Made by a program: the position numbers and the translations under genes
From: a virus
Lineage: Duplodnaviria; Heunggongvirae; Uroviricota; Caudoviricetes
Direction: 5' to 3' (one strand)
Virus record (IMG/VR): IMGVR_UViG_3300030250_000013
DNA: 54,876 nucleotides
The notes under the pieces: generated by a model
What the model saw: the letters and a program-made list of their open reading frames with translations, nothing else
Told to the model about the DNA's origin: nothing
Database searches by the model: none
Shown: positions 24,063 to 24,771 of the stretch, in pieces
Layout: the number at the start of each line of letters is the position of its first letter
Numbering within the stretch: the first letter of the stretch is position 1

Positions 24063-24771
24063 TTATGTTTATTTTTCTTCATCTCGGCAACTCGTGCAGA
24101 CCGTAATGCTATCAATAATTTCCACAAGAATTGTACATCAACGTTATACACCCGTGCATAACGCTCACAAGCAACCCAATCAGCTTCCATAAGATCCAAA
24201 TAAGCATTCCAGTAAAATATAGCATCAGGTCGCAATTCAGGACGTTTCTGTACAACAACCGGAACAGATATACCACGAGCAGCCGCCCCTTGTGTAACCC
24301 AGTCCAGGTCGTCCCCGTCTGTCTTATCGTTCCACAAGAGGAAGTCGATCAGTTTTTTTCAATCTGTTTTTCCCATTCGTCCTGGAAGAATGCGGAATTA
24401 ATTGCGAACTGAATAACACGACTGTAGATCACCTGACCGAAACGTTCATCACTTAACAGTTCAATAGCTTCTTCAACACTGAATGGTTCCGGTTTGTCAT
24501 CTTCACCAATCAGTTTCCAGTCCAGCATAAGAACGTTAGCCACGAACTTAACACCTTCTGGTGTATATTCCTGATTCCACAGTTTTTCAAAGAAGTTTTC
24601 AGACAACACACCGTTCTGTTTTACATAGTCCGCGACTGTTACGTTATATACCTGGTTAGCGGTGTTCAGGTTCAACACAGTGATACTGAAATTTTCATTT
24701 AAAATCAGTTCAGCAGAAGACTTCAGCACTAATGGAGAAAGTGCTTTTTTCAGATGGTCAAATTTTGACAT
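24053..24771 (-). CDS. tail assembly chaperone frameshift product (GT-like)
   Basis: The downstream frame is open from the slippery site at 24352-24358 (minus strand A AAA AAC) to 24053; the track ORF 24053-24337 begins with TTG. Confidence 0.5.
24349..24771 (-). CDS. tail assembly chaperone (G-like)
   Basis: 140 aa; lies between the major tail and tape measure genes; ends EKN* within the slippery heptamer. Confidence 0.55.
   Translation of the reverse strand: MSKFDHLKKALSPLVLKSSAELILNENFSITVLNLNTANQVYNVTVADYVKQNGVLSENFFEKLWNQEYTPEGVKFVANVLMLDWKLIGEDDKPEPFSVEEAIELLSDERFGQVIYSRVIQFAINSAFFQDEWEKQIEKN

Follow-up and report, generated by a model that had tools for sequence, protein, structure and literature searches.

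The tail assembly chaperone gene of this phage very probably undergoes a programmed −1 ribosomal frameshift of the lambda G/GT type, yielding a short protein, G, and a C-terminally extended fusion, GT. The window, by which is meant the whole 54,876-nt stretch of DNA that was analyzed, is by its sequence a Sashavirus/9NA-like siphophage, with about 96% identity over 20 kb to the Escherichia phages AVIO78A, PDP46 and Bas82 and about 95% to the Salmonella phages Sasha, Sergei and Solent. The frameshift is already known, being annotated in the closest relatives, 9NA, Sasha and AVIO78A, and for biology the window represents one more case of a well-known recoding event. In practical terms, the window should be annotated with a 140-aa G and a 239-aa GT joined at 24352, and not with a separate 94-aa gene starting at a TTG codon. 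The relevant features are as follows:

24877–26334, minus strand: major tail tube protein, the upstream neighbor, 485 aa (PF18906, E = 7e-18)
24349–24771, minus strand: G-type tail assembly chaperone ORF, 140 aa, zero frame, ATG at 24771
24359–24361, minus strand: −1-frame stop codon TGA, immediately preceding the heptamer
24352–24358, minus strand: slippery heptamer A_AAA_AAC, seen in the sequence itself, with X_XXY_YYZ in register with the zero frame
24053–24352, minus strand: T extension in the −1 frame, 99 codons (LIDFLLWNDK...KNKHKPG), then TAG at 24055–24053
21066–23981, minus strand: tail length tape-measure protein, the downstream neighbor, 971 aa (PF20155, E = 1e-51; phrog_1107, E = 1e-206)

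The G ORF starts at an ATG preceded, at a distance of 6 nt, by the Shine-Dalgarno sequence AAGG, and its 3′ end reads CAG ATT GAA AAA AAC TGA, giving the protein end QIEKN*. The last sense codons are GAA (24360–24358), AAA (24357–24355) and AAC (24354–24352), followed by the stop codon TGA at 24351–24349, and the heptamer consists of the third base of GAA and the two final sense codons of G (Lys-Asn). The first-pass annotation had described a G ORF ending in EKN* with A_AAA_AAC over its last codons, and this is confirmed at 24358–24352, in register. In the −1 frame, the same sequence reads TGA (24361–24359) AAA AAA CTG ATC GAC. Because this TGA abuts the heptamer, and the open −1 frame overlaps G by only 7 nt, the heptamer is the one place at which a −1 shift could link the frames. 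The 7-nt overlap is found in the window and the Sasha-type relatives, while it ranges from 16 to 70 nt in others. The −1 frame is indeed open from the heptamer and ends at 24053, as had been noted, but it contains 99 sense codons rather than 95; the latter figure corresponds to the TTG ORF at 24337–24053 (94 aa) plus its stop codon and not to the length from the shift point. The fusion would comprise 239 aa, with 24771–24352 joined to 24352–24053 and base 24352 read twice.

How would the two products be made? Most ribosomes would read GAA AAA AAC TGA and release the 140-aa G. A minority would slip back one base on A_AAA_AAC by tandem slippage, in which tRNA-Lys in the P site would re-pair from AAA to AAA and tRNA-Asn in the A site from AAC to AAA. 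Decoding would then resume at CTG (24352–24350), in the reading CTG ATC GAC, and continue for 99 further codons, to give the 239-aa GT fusion with the junction QIEKN-LIDFLLWNDK. The efficiency of the shift would set the ratio of G to GT. A slow-to-decode stop codon beside a shift site can favor slippage, and in the window the stop lies immediately after the heptamer. We infer which tRNA slips, as well as what this neighboring stop and a candidate stem further downstream would contribute.

The occurrence and efficiency of the shift, and the functions of G and GT, we infer by analogy. In lambda, the G:GT ratio is about 30:1 and is crucial; the binding partner of the G part is the tape-measure protein, and that of the T part is the tail shaft subunit (PMC5009743). 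By the same token, the G part of both proteins would coat the tape-measure protein in this phage, and the T part of the fusion would recruit the tail tube protein. A_AAA_AAC is a recognized −1 heptamer that in E. coli is much less shift-prone than A_AAA_AAG (PMC5009743), and this weakness suits a low-level shift. In HK97-like chaperone genes, reporters measured 6–7% shifting (PMC3711429). For 9NA-like or Sasha-like phages, no experimental evidence of the shift, whether from protein analysis, ribosome profiling or reporters, was found in the literature searched: the AVIO78A paper makes no mention of it, and the 9NA genome announcement does not discuss it.

The gene order, with tube, G, T and tape measure in succession, fits the position expected for G/GT, and the upstream gene is annotated as the major tail tube protein in both Sasha and AVIO78A. 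G matches the 'tail assembly chaperone' family phrog_8233 over profile positions 5–140 (E = 3e-48), and the T extension matches the same profile over positions 141–250 (E = 1e-30). Since G and T map to consecutive stretches of phrog_8233, the two frames encode successive parts of one protein family. G also matches phrog_313 (E = 1e-17), and T matches PF23812 (Phage_TAC_18) with an E value of 3e-4 and a score of 21.2 bits, which is below the curated cut-off of 27. No Pfam match was found for G, with no detected similarity to the Pfam families of lambda gpG, and a profile search found no sequence relatives of G in the PDB. A single-sequence AlphaFold2 model of G had a mean pLDDT of 49.6, too poor for judging the fold; in chaperones of the G/GT class, the G domain reportedly has a spiral fold, described by Pell et al. 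in 2013.

In the 485-aa tail tube protein, the match to the 266-position PF18906 profile is stretched over residues 37–462, and so the protein must contain large insertions or additional domains that typical tube proteins lack.

The strongest argument that the site did not arise by chance comes from comparison of 29 homologous loci. Annotated phage records, with the window counted among them, supplied 16 of these, and IMG/VR viral contigs the other 13. Every one of the 29 has an in-frame AAAAAAC located 7 or 10 nt before the G stop codon, and in every one the heptamer is followed by a −1 extension, of 84–100 codons. The heptamer is thus kept, in register, even in strongly diverged loci in which G is only 25–43% identical: Morganella phage Henu15, Proteus phage Isfahan, the Vibrio phages (sampled from about 60 records) and the metagenomic loci L025 and L026. 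The codon preceding the Lys codon may be GAA, ACA, GTA, ATA or CTA, its final base always being A, and the G stop codon may be TGA, TAA or TAG and is occasionally shifted by one codon. This zero-frame stop directly follows the heptamer in the clades of Sasha, 9NA and the Klebsiella phages and comes one codon later in the others. Eight alignment columns are invariant (AAAAAACT), against a mean column identity of 75% downstream. T is conserved as a protein, with the motifs D-x-L-D/E-W, R-G, R-P-x-L, F-Y-W-x-A and Y-A-x-x-Y.

Several other explanations for this arrangement have to be considered. One is that the heptamer and the open −1 frame have no function, the Lys-Asn end being encoded as AAA AAC by chance and the downstream frame going untranslated. 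The AAAAAAC motif by itself is not rare in such an A+T-rich genome (15 copies on the two strands of the window, at 43.8% G+C); it is the arrangement that is unusual. Long open −1 frames are common as well: 37 of the 116 window ORFs of at least 80 aa are extended in the −1 frame by 60 codons or more, and in most of these cases the extension appears to be no more than the next, overlapping gene. However, any in-frame X_XXY_YYZ within the last 60 nt is found in just three of these 37, and only the G ORF has AAAAAAC directly against its stop codon. Moreover, the T protein is conserved despite extensive divergence of the DNA and matches chaperone profiles, and three synonymous positions in the heptamer show no variation in any lineage, all of which makes the absence of function barely conceivable. 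It is also extremely unlikely that T is a gene of its own, with initiation at TTG 24337 or further on and with a free 94-aa T but no fusion as the product. This TTG ORF appears in the program-made list of reading frames, and separate downstream ORFs are annotated in the records of Bas82, Isfahan, Kpn BU9 and the Vibrio phages. On the other hand, the 22 nt preceding TTG 24337 offer no Shine-Dalgarno complementarity (0 kcal/mol), compared with −3.4 to −5.9 kcal/mol, at a spacing of 6–8 nt, for real starts nearby. Where the window has TTG, 9NA has CTG, L025 has CTC, Henu15 has CAA and the Klebsiella phages have CAG. No possible start codon precedes the first five residues of T (L-I/T/V-x-x-L), which are encoded between the heptamer and the TTG, and these residues are conserved at the amino acid level. 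The T frame contains no ATG before codon 55, and starting there would lose the most conserved part of T. The case is somewhat different in the Vibrio relatives, which have an ATG at T codon 9 with GAGGTG about 12 nt upstream that could initiate translation, and it is there that automatic annotation calls a separate 'tail chaperonin'. These phages nevertheless keep the heptamer, and a separate T gene would leave its invariance in 29 of 29 loci unexplained. The TTG start had been read at the outset as consistent with a lack of independent initiation, and the lack of a Shine-Dalgarno sequence, the unconserved TTG and the distant ATG all bear this out; independent initiation of T, as far as can be judged from these features, is unlikely.

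It is conceivable as well that the frames are joined before translation, by an RNA polymerase that stutters on the run of seven A residues at 24359–24353 and adds one A, so that the mRNA itself encodes GT (QIEKK-LIDF). A single inserted A leads to the same frame as a −1 shift, the A7 run is present in the window, Sasha and 9NA, and slippage on homopolymers is a known alternative route (PMC5009743). What is actually conserved across the family, however, is merely A6 followed by an invariant C (ACAAAAAAC, GTAAAAAAC, ATAAAAAAC and CTAAAAAAC), and all 29 loci hold the X_XXY_YYZ register and the Z base, which are of consequence when tRNAs re-pair and not when a polymerase slips. Such a core, fixed in its codon register, agrees with re-pairing of tRNAs and not with a stuttering polymerase. 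As a rule, bacterial RNA polymerase slips efficiently only on runs of about nine or more A or T residues, and transcriptional slippage is a very unlikely source of GT. The preferred reading is thus a ribosomal frameshift of the G/GT type, as proposed in the first-pass annotation, and on this reading synteny, homology to phrog_8233, the conserved heptamer, the lack of a separate start and prior annotation all agree. The G/GT class, with its conserved programmed frameshift, is said to have been defined by Xu, Hendrix and Duda in 2004. All of the defining features of that class that can be seen at the sequence level are present in the window, and in these terms the gene is an ordinary member. The class is further marked by production of G and GT in a fixed ratio, by a requirement for both in tail assembly and by the absence of both from virions; the literature searched yielded no data of this kind for 9NA-like phages.

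A further window ORF, of 107 aa (14816–15139, minus strand), has an in-frame TTTAAAA within its last 60 nt and a −1 extension of 129 codons. Because the extension coincides with the next ATG-started ORF (14819–14430, a 4-nt overlap), it most likely reflects a plain overlap of neighboring genes and not another frameshift site.

The closest counterparts to the G/GT genes of the window are their orthologues gp48/gp49 of 9NA (KJ802832), gp44/gp45 of Sasha (KX987158) and 058/059 of AVIO78A (MZ726797). Compared with the annotated tail assembly chaperones, the G protein of the window shows 98–100% amino acid identity to those of Sasha and AVIO78A and 88% to that of 9NA, and all three phages share with it the gene order, the A_AAA_AAC and the −1 extension. 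Each has a joined CDS in GenBank, with the notes 'translated with -1 frameshift' (9NA), 'frameshift product' (Sasha) and 'ribosomal slippage (27291)' (AVIO78A), and position 27291 of AVIO78A is one of the bases of this heptamer. At 719 nt, the fusions of AVIO78A and Sasha encode 239 aa, as in the window, whereas the 9NA fusion is shorter. Such differences from the window are trivial: in 9NA, the frames overlap by 25 nt, the stop codon is TAA, and the T part lacks 9 residues by comparison.

The annotation of other relatives is less complete. The T part is missed or fragmented in Kpn BU9, Carvaje, Bas82, PJ16, Isfahan and many of the Vibrio phage records. No frameshift is annotated in the records for loci L004, L005, L006, L007, L009 and L010–L014 (OR145793, OL604152, PQ850612, OQ955832, NC_041925 and the Vibrio records), in which T is absent, split into small 'hypothetical' ORFs or given as a separate 'tail chaperonin'. 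All of them carry an in-frame AAAAAAC, and this invariant heptamer provides a simple rule for correcting the annotation.

Among more distant systems, lambda is alike in having a −1 shift near the end of the chaperone gene, between the genes for the major tail and tape-measure proteins. The lambda slippery site is G_GGA_AAG, in contrast to the A_AAA_AAC of the window, which abuts the stop codon. In lambda, a short and a C-terminally extended product are made in a ratio set by the shift (Levin et al. 1993; Xu et al. 2004, 2013, 2014, via PMC5009743). The same heptamer in the same gene context is found in phages that are unrelated, as are their hosts: AAAAAAC lies beside the chaperone stop codon in gp12/gp13 of Acinetobacter phage vB_AbaS_Loki, where the shift is described as predicted from the sequence (PMC5313236), and A_AAA_AAC is listed as the shift site in the g-t genes of the haloarchaeal virus HCTV-2 (PMC5009743). 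The E. coli dnaX gene, with its A_AAA_AAG, upstream Shine-Dalgarno-like element and downstream hairpin, also resembles the window in having an A-rich heptamer suited to tandem slippage in an enterobacterial host. The Z base in the window is C, however, so that the A-site tRNA is that for Asn and not Lys, a combination less shift-prone in E. coli. Furthermore, the shift in dnaX leads to early termination, whereas in the window it would lead to an extension.

Does the site have stimulators like those of dnaX? A possible stem lies on the 3′ side of the heptamer:

24286–24341, minus strand: candidate 3′ stimulatory stem, CCUCUUGUG (24341–24333) pairing with CACAAGGGG (24294–24286)

This stem has 9 bp, starts 10 nt after the heptamer and closes a 38-nt loop. 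The 70 nt downstream of the heptamer fold with a z score of −2.55, equaled by 3 of 200 shuffled sequences, while a 120-nt fold is unremarkable (z = +0.15). In the clade of Sasha, 9NA, the Klebsiella phages and L025 (nine distinct sequences), 96% of the stem cells are paired, against 46–73% in slid controls, the stem having been derived from one of the nine sequences and then compared. At two pairs, both partners have changed in a compensatory way (U-A to C-G and G-C to C-G), and one of these changes involves a Gln-to-Glu replacement paired with a synonymous change in a Leu codon; the Klebsiella group has one A-A mismatch. Henu15 and Isfahan have stems of other sequence at a similar place (z = −1.7 and −4.4), no comparable downstream stem was found in the Vibrio relatives, and RNAalifold gave no downstream consensus structure across the whole family. 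A stimulatory role for the stem, going by these comparisons, is suggestive only, and the stem would be of interest only to those who work on frameshift stimulators.

On the 5′ side, the Shine-Dalgarno-like element of the window is GGGAA (−4.2 kcal/mol), but 19% of control windows match it, so that as a stimulator it is indistinguishable from background. 9NA and the Klebsiella phages have GGGAG 10–11 nt upstream of the heptamer, in the top 2–4% of control windows, and Henu15 has GGGAGGAG at this position. The signal is confounded by conserved Trp-Glu codons. This GGGAG and the clade stem, 10 nt downstream, resemble the layout of dnaX, although in the window the Shine-Dalgarno-like element is degenerate and the candidate stem closes its long loop. 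One might speculate, tentatively, that the enterobacterial branch (Sasha, 9NA, the Klebsiella relatives and L025) acquired dnaX-like stimulators around a weak A_AAA_AAC site, namely the long-range stem, maintained by compensatory changes both synonymous and non-synonymous, and in some members the GGGAG, which together would adjust how much G is made relative to GT. For lambda, the usual account is that the shift does not depend on a structure of this kind.

The gaps on either side of G/GT contain hairpins resembling terminators, one of which follows the fusion:

24043–24064, both strands: terminator-like hairpin and T-run, with 8 bp of G+C-rich AAGCCCGG/CCGGGCTT

This hairpin lies between GT and the tape-measure gene and contains the stop codon of the T frame; presumably, read-through is needed at this point. 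A terminator is annotated at the homologous place in the Sasha record. An Rfam search found nothing near threshold, the only matches of note being two sub-threshold ones to Trp_leader over the terminator hairpin. A second terminator-like hairpin (24839–24856, minus strand; GCCCGG...CCGGGC plus T6) immediately follows the gene for the tail tube protein, at a distance of 67 nt from the ATG of the chaperone, and would separate expression of the tube protein from that of the downstream chaperone and tape-measure genes.

Both gaps, 24772–24876 and 23982–24052, are insertion hot spots in relatives (L001, L002, L006 and L007). Between tube and G, there are reverse-strand ORFs of 168 nt in AVIO78A, 264 nt in Bas82 and 624 nt in Sasha. 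Between GT and the tape measure, Bas82 and PJ16 have a 'superinfection immunity protein' along with an endonuclease on the reverse strand, which the PJ16 record lists as a hypothetical protein. The window has neither insert and is the most compact version among the loci examined.
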